Source of the DNA: a virus
Taxonomy: Duplodnaviria > Heunggongvirae > Uroviricota > Caudoviricetes
IMG/VR virus record: IMGVR_UViG_2563366983_000010
Length of the DNA: 33,981 nt
Strand: one strand, 5' to 3'
Positions within the stretch are counted from its first letter, which is position 1, and every line of letters begins with the position of its first letter. This document shows positions 8,757 to 33,981 of this stretch, in pieces. The notes under the pieces are model-generated. The model was given only the letters and a program-made list of their open reading frames with translations. It made no database searches and had not been told where the DNA came from. Made by a program: the position numbers and the translations under genes.

Positions 8757-9817
8757 GTGGCCACCGCCTTTGTTTTCTTCGTCTTCGCTTTCATTTCCGG
8801 CATGTCCAGTGATTCAGGCGGAACCAGCGCCAGAACCGTCATCCGCCCCTGTGCGCCATCCGTCCAGGTCACCCCGGATATCAGCCAGGTGGTTTTCAGG
8901 TTCTGAATGCTGTCGTCGATATCGACAAGGCGATTGGTCTGCCACAGCGGGCCGCTGTCGCCCTGTTCGCGCCAGCCTGCCACCGTGATTTCCGTCGTGC
9001 GGGATTCCCCCAGCATCCGGGCTTTGTACCATTCCCCGCGAATGCTGGCCCCGCCCACGGTCAGGCTGTCTTCATTGACCAGAATGCGCGGGCGGTAACG
9101 GTTAATTTCCGGGTCTTCGGTGATGTACTGGCGACCGCCCACCATCGAGGCAGGCTGGCTGTCCCACAGTTTGCCACCGGCACTGGTGGTGCCTTTGATG
9201 ATGTACTGGCTGTTACGCTCCCGCCAGCTGAAGCGTCCACGGGCGGCGAGGATATTTTTCCCCAGCACCAGTGACACACCCGCGCGAACGGAAGAGGCGC
9301 GGGTGATAATCAGGTTACCTGCGCCGTCAGACGTCAGCAGAACGCCGCGCTGTTTTGCCAGCCGGTCGAGCAGTTCAAAACCCGTTTCACCCTGTTCCAG
9401 AACGACAGACGCAAACGCCTCCCCGGTCGGGGTTTCCGTAATGACGGTTATCCCGAACGGGCAGCAGACATCAGCCGCCACCTGTTCAAGCCGCACGCCT
9501 TTCCATTTCCCGGACGAATGCACCACAGAGCAGTCAACCAGGTCGCCGGTTTTGTCGCGCCCCATGACGCGAATCTCCACGTTATCTGCGTCATAGCTGG
9601 GGATAAAATCATCGATATACCCCGTCAGCACGGTATCCGCGCCCAGCCTGACCGTGCAGGGTTGCCCCTCACGAATCACGCGCGGTGCCGCCGCCGACCA
9701 GCGGGTTGTCACACTGAGATCAAACTCACCGGCAATCGCCTTCAGGGAACGGCTGATGGACATTTCCGTCCAGCCTTCCCACAATTTGCCGTCAACGGTA
9801 AGAATCACGGATTCCAT
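8747..9817 (-). CDS. Tail/baseplate hub protein (Mu P-like, gpD-like)
   Basis: 356 aa; start is ATGA-coupled to the upstream N-like gene. Confidence 0.6.
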   Translation of the reverse strand: MESVILTVDGKLWEGWTEMSISRSLKAIAGEFDLSVTTRWSAAAPRVIREGQPCTVRLGADTVLTGYIDDFIPSYDADNVEIRVMGRDKTGDLVDCSVVHSSGKWKGVRLEQVAADVCCPFGITVITETPTGEAFASVVLEQGETGFELLDRLAKQRGVLLTSDGAGNLIITRASSVRAGVSLVLGKNILAARGRFSWRERNSQYIIKGTTSAGGKLWDSQPASMVGGRQYITEDPEINRYRPRILVNEDSLTVGGASIRGEWYKARMLGESRTTEITVAGWREQGDSGPLWQTNRLVDIDDSIQNLKTTWLISGVTWTDGAQGRMTVLALVPPESLDMPEMKAKTKKTKAVATWD

Positions 9818-11091: not shown

Positions 11092-12938
11092 TACCCTTGC
11101 TCCACGCTGGTGACGCCAGCCTGCGCACTGAGTCTGACGCCGGGTTGATCCACTCTGACGCTTTTCACGCGGGCGTCACCTTCCACTACCACACGGATTT
11201 CCCCCTGCAATTGCTGCGGAAGGAAAGGATAATTCTGTGTGGGTTGCATACCTGCCCACGGTCGCGGGTCGGCAATGTTCTTGTCACCCAGCGAGTTGAA
11301 CCAGTCCGTTACCTTACGCCAGACGGACTCGAGCGCTTTCTGATTGTTCTGACTCTGTTGTGCGAACTCGCGCTCCCACGGGCTGGCGCTGGCATCACCG
11401 GCAACGGATTTAGTGAGACTGTCAACCTCACCCGGCAGGGCGTATTGCGTGGTCAGAAAATCGTAAAACTCCAGAGCACCGGCAATGATGCCAGCGCCTT
11501 TACCTGCCTTTCCTCCACGGTTACCCGGACCCCGAGGATTGCGGGGATTGCGCGATGAATCCGGCGCATCCGGCAGACCTCCGGTATTACCATTCATCCC
11601 GCCACTGCCCATATTAACCACATAAACCGGCATCACACCGGAGCCGAAAACATCTGTGATGCCACCGGGTATCCCTTTGCCTTTCCCTTTGGGATTCATG
11701 ATGTCGTGGATGGTTTTACCGAACTGATACGTCTTTCTGATGGCGATAATGCCTCCCAGCGCAATCGCCATATATTTACCGACCTGCAACCAGTTCTGGA
11801 CAGTGTTCTGGTCCACGCTGTTGAGCGCATCAGCCAGGTCCTGAACGGGCTTTGCCAGTTGCCCTTCAGCAAAACGTTGCCATTCGTTATTCAGTGACTG
11901 TATTGCGGCATTAAAGCCTTCGGCATTGGTCTGTGCGGCCTTTTGCGTGGAACCCAGCTCAATCGTGCCGTAAATCATTTGTTCCATCAGTTGCCGGTTT
12001 TCAGGGTTAAGCAGCGCCTTAATCCCCTGCATTCCGGTCAGATCAAACACATCCTGAAGTTTCAGCGGGTCGTATTTGGCCCGTTTAAGGATTTCCATCA
12101 TCAGCTCATAGGGCTTTTTGATGTCTTTTGTGCCTTTGACAAAAACGTCAATGCCGTTTTTTTTCAGGAACTCGATGTTCTTTTTGTCCGACAGGGAAGC
12201 ATACATGGCCTGAATACTGGTTACCGTCTCATCAATGCTACCTTTGTTTTTGGCGAACACCTGAGCAAATGCCCCCATCTGGGCAATGGCTTCCGGTCCC
12301 TGATCCTGAATGATGGAAAACAGTTTCGGGGCAGCGCGGGCAACATCGGCAACGCTCACAGACCCCACTGCGAACTGTGAATACAGCCTGTCCATCATGT
12401 TACTGACCGCATCAGCGCCCCGGACGTTTTTTTCCCAGAATTGCGCCATCAGCCCGGCAGCAACCTGTCCGTCAACACCAAACGCCTGCATTACCAGTCC
12501 CATGTTGCGAAGATTATCCACCACATACTGATAATCACCTGTTTTCCCCAGAAGTTCGCTGGCCCCCTGACCAAGCGCAGAGGCATCAATACGAATATCT
12601 TTCTGGTTCGACACATCCCTGATTTTGTCGTGAAGCGTCTTTACCTGTTCAGTGGTTAACTGGGCATCCGTACCCATCCGGCGCATCTGCGCATCAAAAT
12701 CGGCAACCTGTTTGATGGTAAGGCTACTGCCAAGCCCGGCAATCATCGCCGTGTAGCGGTTACCCAGCGTGTCAAGGCCACGCGTGGCGGCCTCCGTTGT
12801 GGCTTTGACAAGGCGCATGGCCTTCTGATGGTTCCGGGCGAACTGCGACATGTTTGCGCCGTACTGCCGGGCTTTGGCGGTCAGGTTCCCGGCAAGGTTG
12901 ATCATGATTTCCGTGCTGAGACGGTTACCTGTTGCCAT
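11091..12938 (-). CDS. Tail tape measure protein
   Basis: 615 aa; helical N-terminal two-thirds, Gly-rich low-complexity segment (GSGGMNGNTGGLPD...GPGNRGGKAGKGAG); lies between the chaperone and baseplate genes. Confidence 0.8.
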   Translation of the reverse strand: MATGNRLSTEIMINLAGNLTAKARQYGANMSQFARNHQKAMRLVKATTEAATRGLDTLGNRYTAMIAGLGSSLTIKQVADFDAQMRRMGTDAQLTTEQVKTLHDKIRDVSNQKDIRIDASALGQGASELLGKTGDYQYVVDNLRNMGLVMQAFGVDGQVAAGLMAQFWEKNVRGADAVSNMMDRLYSQFAVGSVSVADVARAAPKLFSIIQDQGPEAIAQMGAFAQVFAKNKGSIDETVTSIQAMYASLSDKKNIEFLKKNGIDVFVKGTKDIKKPYELMMEILKRAKYDPLKLQDVFDLTGMQGIKALLNPENRQLMEQMIYGTIELGSTQKAAQTNAEGFNAAIQSLNNEWQRFAEGQLAKPVQDLADALNSVDQNTVQNWLQVGKYMAIALGGIIAIRKTYQFGKTIHDIMNPKGKGKGIPGGITDVFGSGVMPVYVVNMGSGGMNGNTGGLPDAPDSSRNPRNPRGPGNRGGKAGKGAGIIAGALEFYDFLTTQYALPGEVDSLTKSVAGDASASPWEREFAQQSQNNQKALESVWRKVTDWFNSLGDKNIADPRPWAGMQPTQNYPFLPQQLQGEIRVVVEGDARVKSVRVDQPGVRLSAQAGVTSVEQG

Positions 12939-17398: not shown

Positions 17399-18301
17399 TT
17401 ATGCCGGGGTGGTGATGAACGGACTGACCACGATGTCCACATCCTTGTACCAGATGTTGGAATCGCCGCCGTTTACCAGCATGGCGTCAATGATGCGCTT
17501 CGCAGCCGCGCGATTTTTCGGTCCCACCACAAGGGTGGTCGGGCGGATGCCCAGCGGTTCACCGTTGGTGGCCTTCATACCCAGCAGCAGATTACTGGCG
17601 CTCTCGTAGTTCTCCGCTGTCAGTGCCGCACGGGAACCGACGGCGGTTTGCCAGAAGCCGAATCCTGCATTACAGCGACCGTCCACCCCGTACAGGAACT
17701 CGTTATTCTTGAAGGTGTGCTCGCTGTTCAGATCGTCCAGGGCTTCAAACTTAAAGGCGCGTCGCGTCTGCCAGATGATGGGTTTCAGTACCTGAGAATC
17801 ATCAATCAGAAACCACGGTTCCCCCTGGTCTGATGCCGGGGTGCCGACAACGTTGCTGTATGTGCCGTCGCCCAGCGGGTGGTCTTCATCAAAGAAGTTC
17901 TGACCGTCAAAACACAGGGTGTTAAACCCGGCACACAGCAGGGGGTAACACAGCTTGTCCGGGAACTCTGACGTCTGGCGGCCATAGCGTTCAGCGATAA
18001 TGCTGTACTGACCAATCTGATCGTCTTCAATGTGTTCGCGTTTAACGCGGATCGAACTTTCCCAGGTTTTGTTCGCAAGGGTGTAACCATAACCGTCCAG
18101 CGTTGCCATCTGACGGGCGCTGACCCATTCTTTAATCTCCGGTAAATCTTTCATCCAGCCGTAGGTATTGGAAGCGGACGAACTCGGGATTTCAGAGGCG
18201 ATGCGCTGCCACTGTGGGGTAACACCACTCAGACCACGGGTATAAGCGGCGCTCAGGCAGGTGGTCAGCGCGTGAAGGACTTCGGAAGTGACTGCTCCCA
18301 T
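17399..18301 (-). CDS. Major capsid protein (Mu T-like)
   Basis: 300 aa, immediately downstream of the protease/scaffold gene (ATGA overlap). Confidence 0.8.
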   Translation of the reverse strand: MGAVTSEVLHALTTCLSAAYTRGLSGVTPQWQRIASEIPSSSASNTYGWMKDLPEIKEWVSARQMATLDGYGYTLANKTWESSIRVKREHIEDDQIGQYSIIAERYGRQTSEFPDKLCYPLLCAGFNTLCFDGQNFFDEDHPLGDGTYSNVVGTPASDQGEPWFLIDDSQVLKPIIWQTRRAFKFEALDDLNSEHTFKNNEFLYGVDGRCNAGFGFWQTAVGSRAALTAENYESASNLLLGMKATNGEPLGIRPTTLVVGPKNRAAAKRIIDAMLVNGGDSNIWYKDVDIVVSPFITTPA

Positions 18302-19263
18302 CAGTTATTCTCCTGTTTCGGTTTAGCGGCGAGGAACTCTTCCCCGGTAATACCCATGCTGCGGCACATCGCCAGTTCGGCGTCGGTCAGTGTCTGCGCG
18401 GGTTTATCCTTGCCCTGGCTGGGCTTGTCGTTGTTCACCAGCGGCTGTGCACCTCTGGTGTATTCCGCAAACTGTTTGCGGCCTTCTTCCGTGCGGCAGG
18501 TGGCAAGGAACATGTCACGGTTTGCCGGGGCCACTTTTCCGGCTTCGATGGCCGCATCCACAAGCGCTTCTGCTTCCTTAGCTTCCAGTTGCTGAAGGCG
18601 TTGTTCTGCGGTTTCTGCACGGTTCAGTGCCAGATTGTGGGTTTCCACCGGCACAAACTTCGTCAGGTCAGGTGTCTGTGCGCGGTTCAGCGCCACCTGT
18701 TCGCTCTCCTGAAGTTGTTTAATGGCGGCCACGGTATCGTCCACCGTGGCGGATTCAGCCAGCCCAAGCAGGCCGGTGATTTGCACAGGTACTGTCATCG
18801 GGTTTTTCTCCGTATTCAGTGCAGGAAAATCCAGGTTAGGTTTGTTGGTCAGCCCGACGCTGGACAGGCGCGTCACCACACCCTCCGCGTCATGGAAAAA
18901 CGCCGGGCTGTAATAGCGATAGCGGCGCTCGCTCAGCATCCACCTGGCGGATTCACTCCAGACAACACGCCCTTCAATGATGCCGTTGTCCGTCACCCGC
19001 AGTTCTTCCACCCAGCCATACGCCGGGGCTTCATCACCGCGTTGCCCTTTAATTTCGGTGGCGTGTTCAATGTCCACCGGAATTTTGATGTCGGACGAGC
19101 GGGTGACCACCTCATGCGGATTGCGGTTAATCCACGTCCGGCCATCGCGCCCGGTGAACTCACCCGCAGGGACGAGTTCAAGCCATTCCGGCAGTTGAGC
19201 GGGTGTCAGCTCAGGGATGGGTTCTGGCAGGGAAAAACACAGCGCCAGCAGTTCCGGTTGCAT
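18301..19263 (-). CDS. Head maturation protease / scaffold (Mu I-like)
   Basis: 320 aa; first gene after the F-I intergenic region; ATG at 19261-19263 with GGAG RBS. Confidence 0.75.
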   Translation of the reverse strand: MQPELLALCFSLPEPIPELTPAQLPEWLELVPAGEFTGRDGRTWINRNPHEVVTRSSDIKIPVDIEHATEIKGQRGDEAPAYGWVEELRVTDNGIIEGRVVWSESARWMLSERRYRYYSPAFFHDAEGVVTRLSSVGLTNKPNLDFPALNTEKNPMTVPVQITGLLGLAESATVDDTVAAIKQLQESEQVALNRAQTPDLTKFVPVETHNLALNRAETAEQRLQQLEAKEAEALVDAAIEAGKVAPANRDMFLATCRTEEGRKQFAEYTRGAQPLVNNDKPSQGKDKPAQTLTDAELAMCRSMGITGEEFLAAKPKQENN

Positions 19264-19312: not shown

Positions 19313-19338
19313 AAAAAAAGCCGGATTTACCGGCTTCA
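19313..19338 (-). terminator. Intrinsic-terminator-like hairpin plus U-run (GAAGCCGG-TAAAT-CCGGCTTTTTTT); copy 1 of a duplicated element
   Basis: Minus strand reads TGAAGCCGGTAAATCCGGCTTTTTTT, identical over 26 bp to 26879-26904. Confidence 0.5.
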
Positions 19339-24793: not shown

Positions 24794-25005
24794 GTTTTCC
24801 TCCTGCGTTCCCGCATCTGCTGACAGTCAATACAGGTCACCACATCCGGCAGCGCCGCAAGGCGCTGTGCCGGAATAACGTTCCCGCAGTCATTGCAGAA
24901 GCCCCGGCTGTGGGGCGTTTCTTTTGTCCGTGTTTGCCAGGCTTTAACGACGCTCTGACGCTCGTTCAGAACCACTTCACTGATGCGATCGATTTCGTCG
25001 GTCAT
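24778..25005 (-). CDS. TraR/DksA-family C4 zinc-finger protein
   Basis: 75 aa with CNDCGNVIP...CIDCQ spacing typical of TraR/DksA zinc ribbons; ATGA-coupled to the upstream gene. Confidence 0.6.
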   Translation of the reverse strand: MTDEIDRISEVVLNERQSVVKAWQTRTKETPHSRGFCNDCGNVIPAQRLAALPDVVTCIDCQQMRERRRKTCPGK

Positions 25006-25610
25006 TTCAGCCCCGCAGACATTTTGTGACGGCTTGATTTGCTGTAACGGGCAAAGCCGTCAAGGGTTCTTACACCGAGATAGCCCAGCGCCGGGGTAAG
25101 CAACATCAGCGTGATATCCCAGTCCGGTGATGGCATATGCAGCGTGATACCTCTGGCACCGGCAATGGCTCCGGCAATCTGGCCGCAGGAGAGCAACAGC
25201 ACATAGGCCAGACTGCTGTAACAGGAAAGGCGGGCCAGCAGCGGGCGTGTCTGGCGCACATAGCTGTCCGTGGCGTTGTCACCATTGCGGATGGTTTCCT
25301 GCTGTTCGTGGTGTGCGGCCTGCTGGTCAGCCAGCACCAGCTTCTGCCGTTCCACCTCCAGCTGTTGCAGCTGAACTTTCAGGGTTTCCAGCTGCATCAG
25401 TTGCTCCGGTGACAGCATCACCAGTTTTTGTTCCAGAATGCGTTGCTGTTCAGCCACCGGCAGGCTTTCCCGGACGCTTTCCACCATACCGGCCACCGAG
25501 TCAGCAGCGGCAGATGTGCTGCCACCAAACCAGCGCCCGACGGAACGAATCAGCCCCGGCCCGGCTTTCAGCAGAACAGAGGCGATGCCTGAAAGGGTTA
25601 ACGGATCCAC
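25002..25610 (-). CDS. Coiled-coil protein with C-terminal transmembrane segments (lysis-associated?)
   Basis: Start placed at the GTG at 25608-25610, preceded by GGAGG at 6-nt spacing. Gln/Leu-rich helical region, then hydrophobic segments (LAYVLLLSCGQIAGAIAGA and ITLMLLTPALGYLGV). Confidence 0.4.
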   Translation of the reverse strand: MDPLTLSGIASVLLKAGPGLIRSVGRWFGGSTSAAADSVAGMVESVRESLPVAEQQRILEQKLVMLSPEQLMQLETLKVQLQQLEVERQKLVLADQQAAHHEQQETIRNGDNATDSYVRQTRPLLARLSCYSSLAYVLLLSCGQIAGAIAGARGITLHMPSPDWDITLMLLTPALGYLGVRTLDGFARYSKSSRHKMSAGLK

Positions 25611-26023
25611 GGGAAACCTCCATACAGATAACGCTGAAGACAGAGCAGACCGCCGCAACAACCACCACACAGCCAGAACACCGGATGCACCGGTGACATC
25701 ATCATCAGCGTGCTGAAGACGCAGCAGAAATATCCCAGCGCCCAGACCACCCATGACCACACGATAATGTGGCGACCAAAAGCCCGGTAACGGACCTCAG
25801 GCAGCAGGCGAAATGGCACATTCCCGAGGCTTGCGCTGTATGAAAACAACACCACCCCGGCAAAGGACAACAACATCAACACGAACGATCGCCAGCCACA
25901 TAACATGCTGATGATGAACATGCAGAGTGTCAGTCCGGCCAGCGGCCATGGGGTTCTCATCAGTCGGGAACAAAGCAGCCAGTCACACAGTTTTAAAATT
26001 TTGTTCATTACCTTTTTCCACAT
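25598..26023 (-). CDS. Polytopic Cys-rich membrane protein (holin candidate or membrane moron)
   Basis: Start at Met58 of ORF 25598..26194 (MWKKVMNKILKL...), 141 aa with about four hydrophobic segments and many Cys. Confidence 0.4.
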   Translation of the reverse strand: MWKKVMNKILKLCDWLLCSRLMRTPWPLAGLTLCMFIISMLCGWRSFVLMLLSFAGVVLFSYSASLGNVPFRLLPEVRYRAFGRHIIVWSWVVWALGYFCCVFSTLMMMSPVHPVFWLCGGCCGGLLCLQRYLYGGFPWIR

Positions 26024-26234
26024 TGAATTTTTCCCTGTACTTCTGGCACTGCCAGAAAATGTCCCGTGTATCCACGGAGTTCCAGCCACGCATGTAGTAG
26101 CTGGCGTGTGTGCCGTCATGGCCGGTATAGTCCAGCGGTTTCGGAGGCGGGCCTCCGGCCATGCGGTGTAAAACCTCCTGACGCAGGCGGTCACGCCGCC
26201 CGGCTTTCAGGGAGGCGTCCCAGCCTTTGCCCAT
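25983..26234 (-). CDS. Hypothetical hydrophilic protein (83 aa)
   Basis: ATG one nt after the endolysin stop, with GGGGG RBS; overlaps the start of the membrane-protein gene in another frame. Confidence 0.3.
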   Translation of the reverse strand: MGKGWDASLKAGRRDRLRQEVLHRMAGGPPPKPLDYTGHDGTHASYYMRGWNSVDTRDIFWQCQKYREKFNVEKGNEQNFKTV

Positions 26235-26235
26235 G

Positions 26236-26823
26236 TCACCCCCGCGTGGTGGACGGCGCGTTGTCGATGATTTCCAGACAGGCGTCGGTCAGTTTTTCCA
26301 TGCGGTTAAACCAGCCATTCAGGTATTTGCCCTGGGCGGGTTTGGATTTGATGATTTCGGCATAAAAGCGGGAACGACGGACAATGCAGCGGGTCAGCAA
26401 CCAGTCCGGGGTGGACAGGCTCACGGCCTTACGGGTACGCGGGCCGATGATGCCGTCAGCATCCACATCAGTGGCTTCCTGCAAAATTTTGATAGCTTTT
26501 TTAACGCCATGCTGAACCGCCGCATCGAACACAAACATCGCCACGCCATCAGGCCACTGGTCACATCCGGCAGGCAGCCAGTAATCGCGCCAGTAAATCT
26601 GCGCAACCTGTTCGCGGGTTAAATCCTTAATGCGGGTGTCGGGTTTACCATCGCCGTTGACATCGGTTTTGCCGTCAATCACACCGTCGCGGCGGTCAGA
26701 AATGCCGTATTTGGTTTCGCCGCCACGGTCTGTGGGGTCATTGACATAGACGCCTTCGATATCAGGACGCAGAATAAAATTCAGCGCATGTTCAAAGGCC
26801 GGAGAGAATTTTTGATTTTCCAT
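26236..26823 (-). CDS. Endolysin, GH108-like lysozyme domain with C-terminal peptidoglycan-binding domain
   Basis: N-terminal EGVYVNDPTDRGGETKYGIS motif typical of glycoside hydrolase family 108; C-terminal DGIIGPRTRKAV motif typical of PG_binding_3. No signal peptide or SAR segment. Confidence 0.75.
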   Translation of the reverse strand: MENQKFSPAFEHALNFILRPDIEGVYVNDPTDRGGETKYGISDRRDGVIDGKTDVNGDGKPDTRIKDLTREQVAQIYWRDYWLPAGCDQWPDGVAMFVFDAAVQHGVKKAIKILQEATDVDADGIIGPRTRKAVSLSTPDWLLTRCIVRRSRFYAEIIKSKPAQGKYLNGWFNRMEKLTDACLEIIDNAPSTTRG

Positions 26824-26878
26824 AAAAGCACCTGTGAAGCAGAGTTAAACGTGGTCTGCTTCATAGTGCCGGAGGCAC

Positions 26879-26904
26879 AAAAAAAGCCGGATTTACCGGC
26901 TTCA
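26879..26904 (-). terminator. Intrinsic-terminator-like hairpin plus U-run; copy 2 of the duplicated element
   Basis: Identical 26 bp to 19313-19338; lies 20 nt after the stop of the 159-aa secreted-protein gene and 55 nt before the endolysin ATG. Confidence 0.55.
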
Positions 26905-26923
26905 TTGAATTAAGGGAAGATAA

Positions 26924-27403
26924 CTACTCATCTCCTTTGATGGAGCAATCTATTACCATATCGTTACCCATCTTGAGAAATTTGGTTTGCATGAGAAAAC
27001 CCTGTATCACGTCAGTTAACCCATACCCTTCAACTTTTGTAGCTGAAACTACCATGTCAATAATTCGTTTCTGCTGCTTCTCTGTTAGTTCACCAATTGC
27101 TGACTCTGCAACCCGCGAGCATGCTACAAAGGAAGACAACACACCTGAAGGATTGTTTTCAAAATCCTTTACAGTCGTCCTTGAGCTGACGACTTTATTA
27201 TTGATCGTAAATACCCCGAATTTGCTGTGAGCAGTTTCAGTTCCACCGTTCTTAATAGAATCGCCTCCCTTAAGAGGCATCCAGCTATTTAGTGCAATGA
27301 AATCTTTTTCTGTCAGACGTTTTTTGATGACATCTTCAGCTGGCAACTTTGCCGCATTAGCGCAAAATACGCTCAGTAAAAGTATAAGAGGAAAGTATTT
27401 CAT
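26924..27403 (-). CDS. Secreted/periplasmic protein with cleavable signal peptide, unknown function (159 aa)
   Basis: N-terminus MKYFPLILLLSVFCANA-AKLP is a classic Sec signal peptide. ATG overlaps the stop of the Mor-family gene (ATGA); AT-rich relative to neighbours; followed by the terminator hairpin. Confidence 0.6.
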   Translation of the reverse strand: MKYFPLILLLSVFCANAAKLPAEDVIKKRLTEKDFIALNSWMPLKGGDSIKNGGTETAHSKFGVFTINNKVVSSRTTVKDFENNPSGVLSSFVACSRVAESAIGELTEKQQKRIIDMVVSATKVEGYGLTDVIQGFLMQTKFLKMGNDMVIDCSIKGDE

Positions 27404-27810
27404 GACTCATCCTTAAACAGTTGCATTTGATATTTTCCACGCTCCAGCCTTCGCATTCTTTTGATAGCTTGATATACCGTTTTGTATGTCACTTTGTAAC
27501 GCTGCACCAGTTCCGCTACGTTTTTCCCATCAAAATCACGCCAGATGCGCATGTCTCTGATAAGATTTTCCAGTATTTTCCCTTTAGGAACATATACCTG
27601 AATCCCACCGATATGATTACAAATCGCCACTACCAACTCAAGGGAATAGACCGGGTTAACCCCAAGCCTTATCAGTTCCTGTCGCAACAGAGCATTCAGC
27701 TCTGAAAGTAGCGCCGGATAAACATATTTTTCCTGATAATCGTGAAGATATTCCAGAACGGTGTCGTCCCGGAAGTCTTCGAATAAATCCTGCTCTTTCA
27801 TCTGTTTCAT
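27400..27810 (-). CDS. mor: Mor/C-family transcription activator (middle/late gene activator)
   Basis: 136 aa with C-terminal helix-turn-helix (NVAELVQRYKVTYKTVYQAIKRMRRL); ATGA-coupled to gemA as mor is in Mu. Whether it acts as Mor, C, or both cannot be decided from sequence. Confidence 0.7.
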   Translation of the reverse strand: MKQMKEQDLFEDFRDDTVLEYLHDYQEKYVYPALLSELNALLRQELIRLGVNPVYSLELVVAICNHIGGIQVYVPKGKILENLIRDMRIWRDFDGKNVAELVQRYKVTYKTVYQAIKRMRRLERGKYQMQLFKDES

Positions 27811-28358
27811 ACAGCAATTCTCCCGCTGTTTCGTGCGCGGGCATACGCACTGGTCAGTGCATCATAGCCGCGCAGCTCCCGACCGGTTTCGCTCACAGGT
27901 AAAGGCACACCATGTCGGGCAAAGGCTTCACGGATGCAGCGCATATGCCACTGTTTGAGCGTTTCGAGCACAACCTGCAACGATTCCCCGTGACACCAGG
28001 CCAGTGTGGAAACCCCCTGACCGCCATTACGTCTGGCCGTCAGGCGCTCAACGTATTTGTCCAGCGCGGCGTCGCTGATATCGGAAACGAAACCATCAAG
28101 GAACATCTGCTGCCAGATTTTGTAAATCTTCTCGCGTGGTGTGACATGCCCCTTAAAGCGACGGCGGGGATGTTTTTTCTGCTTCTTAAAACCGCGCTTT
28201 TTCATGGCATCGAGCACTTGTTCCAGTTGTGCAACGGACAGCTCGCGGCAACTGGTTTTGCCCGTGCACTGCACCAGAAAAGCTCGGTAAGTGTCATCGT
28301 CGAGTTGCAACTCCCGACGGGCAACATGAATTAATTTAATCAGGGATGTGCGGCTCAT
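27807..28358 (-). CDS. gemA: GemA-like early protein (Mu gp16 family)
   Basis: Start at Met16 of ORF 27807..28403 (MSRTSLIKLIHVARRELQLDDDTYRAF), AAGGAG RBS; sits directly upstream of the Mor-family gene. Confidence 0.65.
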   Translation of the reverse strand: MSRTSLIKLIHVARRELQLDDDTYRAFLVQCTGKTSCRELSVAQLEQVLDAMKKRGFKKQKKHPRRRFKGHVTPREKIYKIWQQMFLDGFVSDISDAALDKYVERLTARRNGGQGVSTLAWCHGESLQVVLETLKQWHMRCIREAFARHGVPLPVSETGRELRGYDALTSAYARARNSGRIAV

Positions 28359-28725
28359 TATGTCCCATCTCCTTAATGCAGTGTTTTTCGACCCATGCCA
28401 CACGAGCAGAATTCAGGTGACATCTGCCAAGTCTGCATTCCTCATGATAGTGCGCTCTACTTTCATTGAAAGGTAATAATTCATCCAACTCGTTCGCGAT
28501 AAAATCTGCACGTAATTGTTCTAATATATCTTCGGTATCCACTCCGATTTCGTCAAAATAACGACAAGCATTTGCACATAATCCTGAATATTGAACAAAT
28601 ATTTCACCCTCTGTTTCTGGTGCACCATTTTTTAACCACTGGTTATAGGCAACATAAAAATCATAAAGATGTTTTCTGGTGCTGGCGGATGTGGATTTAA
28701 TTTCATTTTTCTCTGCGTTATTCAT
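28336..28725 (-). CDS. Hypothetical early protein, Cys/His-rich C-terminus (129 aa)
   Basis: Start at Met12 of ORF 28336..28758 with AAGAGG RBS at 9-nt spacing; C-terminal HYHEECRLGRCH...HC could bind metal. Confidence 0.45.
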   Translation of the reverse strand: MNNAEKNEIKSTSASTRKHLYDFYVAYNQWLKNGAPETEGEIFVQYSGLCANACRYFDEIGVDTEDILEQLRADFIANELDELLPFNESRAHYHEECRLGRCHLNSARVAWVEKHCIKEMGHNEPHIPD

Positions 28726-30910: not shown

Positions 30911-30923
30911 GATTTCGCTCTCC

Positions 30924-31862
30924 TTACGTGCGCAGCAGGGTTGAAATATCAACGTCCAGGTCTAATTCACGGAAAGCCTGACGCAGATAATTTTCATTAA
31001 CACGATCGCCTTTACCGTAGGCTGTCATGGCCGCAAGGCGCAGCGAGTGATTCAGGATACGAAGCGCACCTGGTTTTTGTGCAATCTGTTGTAATAATTC
31101 CCGCTCGTTTTCGCCGGTAATTTGCCAGGCATCCGCAATGGCTTTTACATCGTCAATTTTGGTTTTATTGATTGCCGTCCGTTTGGCAATACGGGAAAAC
31201 AGGCGGGCAAATTCAACCGTTCTGTTACCACCGGTCATGTTTGAATAAACGCGGTGATTCCCCATCAGAACAAGACCAATACGGGCGGACTCCTGTAACA
31301 GGCGGAGTTCTTCCAGAACCTCAGCGCCAAGATGATCAGCTTCGTCGATAATGACCAGCCCCTGCGTACCTTCAAGACGGCGTCTCAAAGCGCGGGAGAG
31401 TGGCCCCTTACGGCGCGGTGCGTCATTCATTCCCAGTTCATAAGCCAGTTCAGTCAGGCATTCCAGAACACTGGCACAGGATGGGGTAATGGTGATCATC
31501 CAGACATTGTTATTGGTGCGACGAAATTCGCGGGCCGCTTCAGTTTTTCCCACTCCTGGATTACCACAGATAACAGAAATACTTTCAGTCAGGCTGGCAA
31601 AACGCATACTTGTCCAGATTTGGCGGACCGTTCTGGTTTCCACAAAACGCGGGGGTTCTGGCAGTTCTGCGGCGCGGTGATAGTTCTCCAGCCAGCGTTC
31701 AAGAGACTGCGCGACACGTTCATTGTCGCCGTTGTACTTGTCATTCACGAATGCGCTTAACGTTCCTGCGGCCACCCCAGACTCGCGGGCGATTTGTGCA
31801 TAAGTTGTTTTTTCATTTTCTACAAGCGTGCGCAGTCCTGCACGAATATCGGAAATATTCAT
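30924..31862 (-). CDS. B: Transposition ATPase / target DNA activator B (MuB, AAA+)
   Basis: 312 aa; [17 protein letters not shown]-terminus with HTH, Walker A (GNPGVGKTE) and Walker B ([10 protein letters not shown]); closely matches Mu B as recalled. Confidence 0.9.
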
Positions 31863-31899
31863 CTGATAACCTCGTAATTAAATTTTGTTTAAACGTTAA

Positions 31900-33981
31900 T
31901 TAAATGGCTTTTTTACGTCTGTTCTGTTCCAGAATATCCAGTGAATTATTCAGATATTCGTCGCGGTCGCTTTCATATTCATCGTCCGGTTCATCTGCCA
32001 GCACTGGCACGACTTTCTCCACTGGTCTGTAGACGTTGCTGAACAACCCGTTGCCTGTAACAGGAGCTGGCAGTGTTCGGGTATTCTCTGCCTCGGCCAG
32101 TCTGATTTTTTCCTCTCCGCGCTGACGCATCCCTTTGATACGCTGCTGGCGCTGATGGTATTCCGCAGTGACCGGGAATGCCTGCTGTTTATTGCCATCC
32201 CAGACAGCCTCACAGATATAGGAACCGTCCATGCGGCGGATAATTACTTTTGTTGCATCATGAATATCGTAATTCACCAGCACCTTATTACCGTGCTCAT
32301 ATTCCAGGTCAGTTGAATAATAAATATTATTAAACAGCCTGACTTCACAGCGGTTGACTGTACGTTCAATCTGGGGCATAAACATTTCACGCAGTTCAAG
32401 GTCGGACAACCATTCGATTTCCGTCGCTTCTTTTTCCAGTTTGTAGCGTCGGAACTGCGCCGGGGTGTAATGTTCACCGTTTCCACGTAGTGGTAGCGAA
32501 CTATGCGGACGGTTGTTGTACCATTCCACACCAGCTTCAATAGCAGCAATAAGTTCATTCCATGACGGCAGGTTTTTTAAAGCCTGCCGTTGTTTTTCAG
32601 TCAGCTCCCGTCCTTTGTTTGCCGCATTTGTTGCAGATATCAGAGCCTTTGTCGTCCGGCGAACCGTTCCACGGTCGGCACCGGTGCCATAATACGTGGC
32701 AAACTGGCGTGATATGCGCATAGCCAGAGTACGGTTCAGACGCTCTATAATCCCTCGCCCTTGCGGGTTTTCCGGTATACCAAGACGGTGATCAATTCCA
32801 AGACGCGGTAAGACACCCGTAATATCAGCATCGAACGTGTTATTGGTTTCACCGCCGCCATTATCTGAATAATAGATATACGGTTTGCCGTGATTTTTTA
32901 TTCCGTGGCGTAACGCATCAGCAACAGCAACCACACTTTCAGAAAGTGCCAGACTCCAGCCCACAATAAAGCGGCAACTGCCGTCCATGATAAAGGTGAC
33001 TTCTGGGGAAAATGGATTGCCGTGATCAGGATGTGCCACTTTCATCTTCATGCCGTGACCATCACCAATCCAGGCATAATTTACCGGTAAAGATAACCAG
33101 TCCCGACGCACGAAGCCTTCATACTGCCGGAACTCGCTGCCTGTAACGCGCCCACGTTGTTTCACAACAACCGGGAGTTTGTTCATGGCATAGCAAACCT
33201 GATCATACGACGGCAGTGCTGCACACATCGCAGGATTGTCCTGATGCACTTCATACCATTCCGCAGCAAAATCATCATAAGCCTCTCGTATTCCGCACCC
33301 GTTCGGACGGCGGTAAAAGCGAAGAAACTCTGGTAACCAGCGAATCTGGTCTGGTTTTATGGGCTGACGTTTGCCTGGTGCCAGCATGATCAGACGTTCA
33401 GCCGGAGTGGTTGCTTTTTTAAAATCAGCAATCCAGCGTTTCAGTGATATTTCACTAAGGGAGCGCAAAGAACCTTTTTTCGCGTTCGCAGTTGCAACGG
33501 TTTCCACCAGGTGTGCCGGTAACTCACCGTTTTGAGCCTGTTTCACAAACTCACGGATAGCGGCGGCCTGGCTGATTCCTGGTAGTTCACAAACGCGCAA
33601 AACTTCGCTGACAATCGCAATCCGGGCATCCGCTGTTTCTTTTTGCGTAGCGGTTAACGTTCCGAGTTTCTGCTCAAACAGCGCAGGACATTTGCGGTAA
33701 ACCGCAATTTTGCCGTCTTCACGTTTTTTTAAACGCGGAGATTCAGGTTCTTTTGCCTCAGTTGCTGGCTGATTCATTAACGCCTTAATCTGGCGAGCCT
33801 GTAACGCCTTACGCGCCACATCAGGCAAACAGTCGACATGGAACTCAAAAGCCTTTGTCCCTGCACGCTTACGCATCATTCCTTCTGATTCGCCGCAATA
33901 ACGGCGCAATGCTTCCCGAATTCCTTTAATTGTTTTTGGTAATCCTGGTACACCGACCAGCTCTTTGGCGAGAACAAACAT
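31900..33981 (-). CDS. A: DDE transposase A (MuA family), apparently complete
   Basis: 693 aa. N-terminal GLPKT motif as in MuA domain I; WIGDGHG (DDE Asp region); C-terminal DDEYESDRDEYLNNSLDILEQNRRKKAI matches the MuA C-terminal tail. ATG at 33979-33981 is the last codon of the window. Confidence 0.85.
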   Translation of the reverse strand: MFVLAKELVGVPGLPKTIKGIREALRRYCGESEGMMRKRAGTKAFEFHVDCLPDVARKALQARQIKALMNQPATEAKEPESPRLKKREDGKIAVYRKCPALFEQKLGTLTATQKETADARIAIVSEVLRVCELPGISQAAAIREFVKQAQNGELPAHLVETVATANAKKGSLRSLSEISLKRWIADFKKATTPAERLIMLAPGKRQPIKPDQIRWLPEFLRFYRRPNGCGIREAYDDFAAEWYEVHQDNPAMCAALPSYDQVCYAMNKLPVVVKQRGRVTGSEFRQYEGFVRRDWLSLPVNYAWIGDGHGMKMKVAHPDHGNPFSPEVTFIMDGSCRFIVGWSLALSESVVAVADALRHGIKNHGKPYIYYSDNGGGETNNTFDADITGVLPRLGIDHRLGIPENPQGRGIIERLNRTLAMRISRQFATYYGTGADRGTVRRTTKALISATNAANKGRELTEKQRQALKNLPSWNELIAAIEAGVEWYNNRPHSSLPLRGNGEHYTPAQFRRYKLEKEATEIEWLSDLELREMFMPQIERTVNRCEVRLFNNIYYSTDLEYEHGNKVLVNYDIHDATKVIIRRMDGSYICEAVWDGNKQQAFPVTAEYHQRQQRIKGMRQRGEEKIRLAEAENTRTLPAPVTGNGLFSNVYRPVEKVVPVLADEPDDEYESDRDEYLNNSLDILEQNRRKKAI

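Follow-up and report, generated by a model that had tools for sequence, protein, structure and literature searches.

An exchangeable slot for envelope-targeted proteins between mor and the early terminator of Mu-like prophages

Introduction

What would an exported protein do at the junction between the early and late genes of a Mu-like phage, immediately behind the activator gene mor? The question is raised by a 159-amino-acid (aa) open reading frame (ORF) at 26924..27403, on the minus strand of IMG/VR virus record IMGVR_UViG_2563366983_000010, a 33,981-nucleotide stretch of DNA referred to here as the window. Mu is a paradigm phage, yet the early/late hinge of its relatives carries an unannotated gene slot without a Mu counterpart. 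The window is a Mu-like prophage with all genes on the minus strand, running from tail genes at low coordinates to the transposase at 31900-33981, and a near-identical prophage in E. coli UMNF18 displays the full Mu-like gene order. The ORF very probably encodes a real exported accessory protein made early. It is as good as established that the repressor-controlled early operon closes with this gene, which ends just ahead of a terminator that doubles as a putative Mor-dependent late promoter; that a hotspot between mor and this terminator exists in three forms, being vacant or filled by a ~105-aa membrane protein or by a 150-172-aa exported domain, the last of which the ORF represents; and that the gene is dispensable to the phage and exchangeable with other envelope proteins at this fixed site. 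For its function, superinfection exclusion or the masking of an entry component at the envelope by the early-made protein is tentatively placed first, with a probability of roughly 0.35.

The gene has already been annotated as a hypothetical protein (RefSeq) within a PHROG of unknown function, and exported phage accessory proteins are a known kind. New are a corrected map position, a three-state hotspot with defined anchors, and a wider, old, mor-coupled two-cysteine family (groups A1 and A3 below, ~50 distinct sequences) with a confident structural model and no structural relative. This combined family and its fixed position after mor were not recorded in the libraries searched, and literature searches returned no paper on this gene or slot.

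Position of the gene relative to Mu

The following features define the immediate surroundings of the ORF:

26924..27403, minus strand: coding sequence of the 159-aa exported protein (ORF list; phrog_38744 at 1e-109; PGAP annotation in E. coli UMNF18; dN/dS)
27400..27403, minus strand: ATGA, in which the mor stop overlaps the ORF start, a translational coupling (plus-strand letters 'tcat')
27414..27410, minus strand: Shine-Dalgarno AAGGA, 6 nt ahead of the ORF ATG and within the end of mor (sequence reading)
27400..27810, minus strand: mor orthologue, 136 aa, the sole Mor/C-family gene of the window (Pfam PF08765, Mor, 3.9e-29; six-frame search)
26903..26879, minus strand: intrinsic terminator of the early operon, with an 8-bp stem, a 5-nt loop and seven T (scan, folding)

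The ORF begins with ATG and ends with TAG. The product of the upstream gene shares 59% identity with Mu Mor and 32% with Mu C, and a six-frame search of the window yielded no C homologue or second Mor/C gene, the sole Mor/C-like reading frame lying at 27403-27861. In annotated Mu, the order is mor (8781-9170), Pm (9163-9233) with a predicted terminator (9179-9200), gp18, gp19, gp20, C, a terminator, Plys and lys. Twenty nucleotides past the stop of the window ORF stands the hairpin GAAGCCGG-TAAAT-CCGGCTTT with 7 T after it; its folding energy is -13.3 kcal/mol (z = -3.5), and the scan likewise calls it as a terminator, in agreement with the hairpin and T-run that had been described in an earlier note on this DNA. 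The Mu block AAAGCCGGTTAATCCGGCTTTTTTT and the window block GAAGCCGGTAAATCCGGCTTTTTTT are almost identical, and on account of this near identity the window hairpin is the counterpart of the Mu early terminator/Pm block. The ORF is therefore inserted between mor and Pm and does not replace C, occupying an interval of 9 nt in Mu versus 480 nt encoding an exported protein in the window. The earlier note had placed the ORF at the position of C in Mu, an assignment which has to be abandoned given that the ORF precedes the hairpin/Pm block.

A DNA-binding substitute for C was also considered and ruled out, since the product is exported and has no helix-turn-helix (HTH). No Pfam match was obtained for the ORF at E <= 0.1, which places it outside the Mor/C family; with neither a Mor nor an HTH match in Pfam, the exported, non-DNA-binding product anticipated in the earlier note is borne out.

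The ATGA overlap with the mor stop had likewise been reported correctly, though it lies on the minus strand, a detail that had been left unstated. In a scan of 26000-28500, no promoter-like site was detected on either strand, the junction of mor and the ORF included. Because no such site follows mor and a terminator stands directly past the ORF, early expression is expected; the early production proposed from the start would follow from the coupling to mor and from the place of the ORF as the last gene ahead of the early terminator.

The gene and its product

Two segments of the protein are distinguished:

27353..27403, minus strand: signal peptide, residues 1-17, MKYFPLILLLSVFCANA (sequence reading and hydropathy; STEC346 alignment)
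26927..27352, minus strand: mature periplasmic domain, 142 aa (alignments labelled A2 and A7; AlphaFold2)

The N-terminus, MKYFPLILLLSVFCANA followed by AK, carries a lysine at position 2, an 11-12-residue core (FPLILLLSVFC) and an A-N-A motif before the cut, with hydropathy marking this core as the sole hydrophobic segment of the 159-aa protein. Read in this way, the sequence possesses every feature of a Sec/signal peptidase I substrate (charged n-region, core of 7-15 residues, AXA, no further membrane segment), and cleavage by signal peptidase I is predicted after ANA. The Sec signal peptide described earlier from the lysine, the single core and the A-N-A motif is accordingly retained as a prediction. 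An o-spanin or lipoprotein of the Cor/Llp type was rejected, as the lipobox [LVI][ASTVI][GAS]C is absent and the signal end reads L-S-V-F-C, with F at -1; the Cys within the signal peptide is variable, being Ser in two homologues (P0004 and P0005). Residues W41, C95 and C153 of the mature domain (precursor numbering) do not vary in any of 20 sequences, the identity among which falls as low as 12%. The predicted export is backed by the invariance of the two mature-part cysteines across all homologues, and the product is probably exported by Sec and periplasmic, with probably one disulfide, C95-C153.

Comparison with three IMG/VR contig alleles gave dN/dS values of 0.03-0.15 for the ORF at dS 0.24-0.8, a constraint that matches that of mor. 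These values indicate that the ORF is a real gene under purifying selection and rule out a non-coding artefact; the earlier note had raised the possibility that the ORF is not translated, and by this measure it is coding.

An exchangeable slot

Mor-anchored scans, with a three-sequence Mor alignment as profile, yielded 13 loci in genomes of Enterobacterales and a further 80 in IMG/VR. The hairpin block is kept in 94 of 97 related loci, and in these 94 the spacing between the mor stop and the block is trimodal:

8-50 nt: empty slot, 37 of 94 loci (9 nt in 35 of the 37), in Mu-type phages and in a group with a Mor 80% identical to that of the window
~340-350 nt: type B slot, 27 of 94 loci, with a 103-109-aa protein of two to three membrane segments
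~480-650 nt: type A slot, 30 of 94 loci, with a 150-172-aa protein bearing an N-terminal export signal

Altogether, 51 distinct slot proteins were extracted. Type A proteins fall into three groups: A1, the window family, with a cleavable signal; A2, of 165-172 aa, also with a cleavable signal; and A3, of 169-171 aa, in which an N-terminal membrane anchor is not cleaved. Homology of A1 and A3 extends across the whole mature domain (hhalign probability 98.9%, E 2.8e-17), so that A3 retains the domain behind an anchor in place of the cleavable signal, a further point in favour of export; A1 and A2 reach 35% with a single sequence and 67% in profile-profile comparison, having in common the N-terminal part and the Trp/Cys/Cys pattern only. 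Profile comparison shows type B (loci L014-L019, L056, L058, L065-L083, L093, L096, L102 and L103) to be unrelated to type A; no Pfam or PADLOC match was obtained for its protein, which matches PHROG 36430, of unknown function. The slot thus holds envelope-targeted proteins or nothing.

The exchange of one occupant for another can be followed in the STEC346 prophage, which by blastn of whole prophages is 94-97% identical to the window nearly throughout:

26911..27374, minus strand: exchangeable cassette, the sole non-homologous stretch of this neighbourhood relative to the ~95%-identical STEC346 prophage (alignment labelled A1; blastn)

No STEC346 homology exists between 26910 and 27375, where the STEC346 slot encodes a 165-aa A2 protein that has only MKY(L/F)PLILLL and the terminator in common with the window gene. 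The first ~10 codons of the ORF are common to the alternative cassette, so that the breakpoints fall at the signal-peptide start and directly 5' of the Mor site/terminator. There is little room for doubt that these two elements serve as flanks for the swapping of mature domains. Together with the slots found empty or otherwise filled in relatives, this swap upholds the earlier view of an accessory gene, one that behaves as dispensable and exchangeable. Other islands of non-homology with STEC346 lie at 11861-12723 (tape-measure centre), 25768-26021 (the membrane-protein/gp18 region past lys) and 30915-32105 (the B/transposase junction), and the transposase gene is only 67% identical.

The surroundings of the slot raise the question of whether the protein belongs to the lysis programme. 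All slot states share a downstream module comprising a GH108 endolysin, a gp18-like protein, membrane proteins, a holin-like protein with three transmembrane segments (3-TM; at 25002-25760 in the window), a TraR-type zinc finger and DUF2730; the empty slot itself occurs with this same lysis module in the group whose Mor is 80% identical to that of the window. A lysis-timing regulator, in which the periplasmic or anchored domain would bind a holin-like or other lysis component and delay or tune lysis as T4 RI does, would be put in place by early synthesis ahead of the late lysis genes. Such a role would suit a gene that always lies directly upstream of the endolysin operon and that is dispensable, as antiholins usually are, and the soluble-or-anchored periplasmic architecture recalls RI-type antiholins. 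Against this, no co-variation with a partner was visible between slot type and downstream lysis genes when A1, A2, A3, B and the empty state were compared: all occur with the same downstream lysis families. Furthermore, the family is found with both GH108 and M15 endolysins, and a different mature domain is present in a phage with 95% identity. A function in lysis timing is consequently regarded as unlikely.

Family depth, genomic context and structure

The window protein matches PHROG 38744 (function unknown) over its full length (residues 1-159 of 159, E 1e-109); the distant members P0007, P0011 and P0012 match it too. The window protein shares 96% identity with its homologue P0001 and differs at 2 of 159 residues from WP_000873377.1 of E. 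coli UMNF18. A word-indexed search of 5.8 billion proteins recovered 6 close clusters only, an exhaustive profile search of 1.84 billion representatives 11 clusters, with distant members at ~20% identity, and a wider profile search 24 clusters in which every named homologue is a 'hypothetical protein'. The earlier note had proposed a homology search of the mature domain, and here the searches were uninformative: no match was found in Pfam or NCBIfam, none in PADLOC-DB at E <= 1, and noise only (E >= 0.17) in a profile search of the PDB. Neither megablast nor tblastn produced a match in the INPHARED phage genomes, and none was detected to the Pfam families or solved structures of the periplasmic lysozyme inhibitors Ivy, MliC/PliC and PliG.

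Neighbouring genes could be read for eight of the nine distant members looked up, the exception (P0013) lying on a 1-kb contig. Seven of these eight (P0007, P0009, P0010, P0011, P0012, P0014 and P0016) are directly 3' of mor on the same strand, at gaps of -11 to +12 nt and once of 112 nt, and an endolysin comes next in six of the seven contigs (GH108, with one M15 peptidase), the seventh being too short to show it. The eighth (P0015) occupies the same interval on the opposite strand. Including the window, nine family members have readable context and eight of them stand directly 3' of mor. In the one distant Mu-like contig with this reversed arrangement (L008, 4001-4477), the family member between mor and the endolysin is transcribed divergently from the latter and must on account of this orientation use its own or a bidirectional promoter.

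This context bears on one of the options of the earlier note, a fitness or virulence moron, that is, a lysogenic-conversion gene expressed from the prophage that alters the envelope to the benefit of the lysogen (virulence, stress tolerance, resistance to heterologous phages). A separate promoter is required for the member on the opposite strand in L008, 112 nt separate mor from the member in L006, and presence or absence varies among close relatives, all of which would be in keeping with a moron. Base composition is ambivalent in this respect. The GC content of the ORF (0.406) is below the phage average (0.41 vs 0.54), and the AT-richness noted earlier holds against lys (0.543), gemA (0.538) and the whole window (0.538); it does not hold against the upstream mor (0.426), which shares the low GC. 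In the window, the ATGA overlap leaves no intergenic space and, with no promoter-like site after mor, the gene would depend on mor, which must be silent in the lysogen. The terminator, moreover, belongs to the phage backbone and not to the cassette, and all members with readable neighbours reside in Mu-like prophages at one position, unlike the typical scatter of morons. A moron expressed in the lysogen is therefore the least likely of the options of the earlier note, and is considered improbable.

A structural model was sought with AlphaFold. A prediction from 7 close sequences was unusable (pLDDT 52), and the procedure was repeated on the mature domain with 28 diverse sequences, giving an AlphaFold2 model with pLDDT 89.1 and pTM 0.84. 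The modelled domain opens with a helix and continues with two three-stranded meanders separated by a pair of helices. Its structural neighbours are weak and PAS-like only. This weak similarity is the sole ground for a PAS/PDC-like periplasmic ligand-binding or sensor protein, which would report a signal from the envelope or the environment, or sequester a host factor such as a cell-wall enzyme, and such a function appears very improbable.

Proposed role at the envelope

Superinfection exclusion, or the masking of an entry component, is ranked first for several reasons. The slot has two alternative occupants, both of them envelope proteins; near-identical phages differ by the replacement of whole alleles, each of which is under purifying selection; the slot shows no co-variation with the lysis genes; and early envelope exclusion proteins are known, namely Imm and Sp of T4 and Llp of T5. 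According to this proposal, the 159-aa protein would be made together with Mor from the first minutes of lytic growth and would act in the envelope, be it on the periplasmic side of the inner membrane or at another site, where it would block further phage entry, or mask an entry component, during phage replication. The type B membrane-protein cassette would serve the same role.

Two considerations weigh against exclusion. Exclusion genes of the classical prophage kind are active in the lysogen, and the gene for the 159-aa protein should, from its arrangement, be silent there. A contribution to the phage's own programme would likewise be consistent with the deep conservation of the gene's place beside mor and the lysis genes.

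A broader proposal, at present somewhat doubtful, is that the mor-coupled, two-cysteine periplasmic domain is an ancestral component of a large Mu-like branch, marking an undescribed early envelope step, and that the mor-to-Pm interval is a dedicated three-state diversification hotspot. If true, the step may bar related transposable phages from re-entry in a specificity-bearing manner, or may consist of a sensor in the periplasm acting on lysis timing, with the signal-peptide start and the dual terminator/promoter as recombination anchors and a fold without close solved relative. In either case, the slot offers a compact, testable system for the ways in which transposable phages manage the envelope or competing phages in lytic growth, with ~50 natural variants available for questions of specificity.

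The downstream promoter and late genes

Two further features lie beyond the terminator:

26855..26916, minus strand: putative Mor-dependent Pm-type promoter of the lysis/late operon (superposition on Mu Pm and published geometry)
26236..26823, minus strand: GH108 endolysin with peptidoglycan-binding domain, the first gene past the promoter (PF05838 1e-23; PF09374 8.6e-17)

Descriptions of the promoter in two published studies place the Mor dyad at -51 to -36 (centre -43.5), with a recognisable -10 and no -35 (PMC4287176, PMC4390567). The predicted parts in the window are a Mor dyad at ~26906..26891, a -10 (CACTAT) at 26868..26863 and a start at ~26855, the register of the dyad being set by superposition. 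The endolysin is followed by the homologue of Mu gp18 (MGKGW..., 25983..26234), which in Mu precedes C. In four Mu-type loci from IMG/VR that have C and a signal-anchor-release-type (SAR) lysozyme (L081, L089, L098 and L100), a 186-aa GH108-like ORF directly past Pm replaces gp18-gp20.

An exact second copy of the hairpin and seven-T block (GAAGCCGGTAAATCCGGCTTTTTTT) is present at 19313..19337 on the minus strand, 50 nt upstream of the head protease gene (18301..19263), and its downstream spacer (TGCCTtCCGCAtACT) resembles that of the first. This copy probably serves both as another Mor-dependent promoter and as the terminator of the operon ahead of it. The late genes appear to run from Pm-type promoters with a single Mor-type activator, in a two-step and not a three-step cascade. 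For this phage group, the map would thereby be corrected to one in which a single Mor-type activator acts on a Pm-type promoter that directly drives lysis and head genes.

The leader between the T-run and the endolysin ATG (26821..26878, minus strand) folds into two nested helices, and the same fold was obtained in 16 of 16 diverse loci whose sequences differ (the others being L005, L011, L012, L014, L015, L021, L031, L041, L045, L052, L054, L057, L059, L079 and L093). The outer arms read GGCAC/GUGCC in the window and GCCUGC/GCAGGC or CCGGAA/UUCCGG in other loci. In the outer helix, the first ~14 nt past the T-run are paired with the lys Shine-Dalgarno/start region. The 5' arm precedes the putative -10 and would hence be present only in transcripts reading through from the early operon; in these the helix could mask translation of the endolysin, which would stay unhindered in transcripts started by Mor.

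Comparison with known systems

The resemblance to Mu is extensive: a mor orthologue is followed by the same hairpin and seven-T block that is annotated in Mu as terminator and Mor-dependent promoter (t9.2/Pm), and the window has a gp18 homologue, a DUF2730 releasin-like gene and a TraR-type gene downstream. Unlike Mu, the window has no C, its putative Pm-type promoter would directly drive a cytoplasmic GH108 endolysin and not gp18-C, and it possesses the exact second block copy ahead of the head protease gene.

The T4 antiholin RI is a phage-encoded protein with a small periplasmic domain and a cleavable or releasable N-terminal anchor, expressed ahead of lysis. The window protein shares the small periplasmic domain and the cleavable or releasable N-terminal anchor with RI; it differs in that no similarity was detected and in the lack of co-variation between its gene and the neighbouring holin-like gene.

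Imm and Sp of T4 and Llp of T5 are early-expressed envelope proteins that exclude superinfecting phage. No sequence or fold similarity to them is detectable, and the window protein lacks a lipobox, unlike Llp. The likeness lies in the kind of protein, all being small and envelope-targeted, with early expression in the window expected from gene order, and in the pairing of types, as the small polytopic membrane protein and the periplasm-facing protein of these phages parallel the type B and type A cassettes of the slot.
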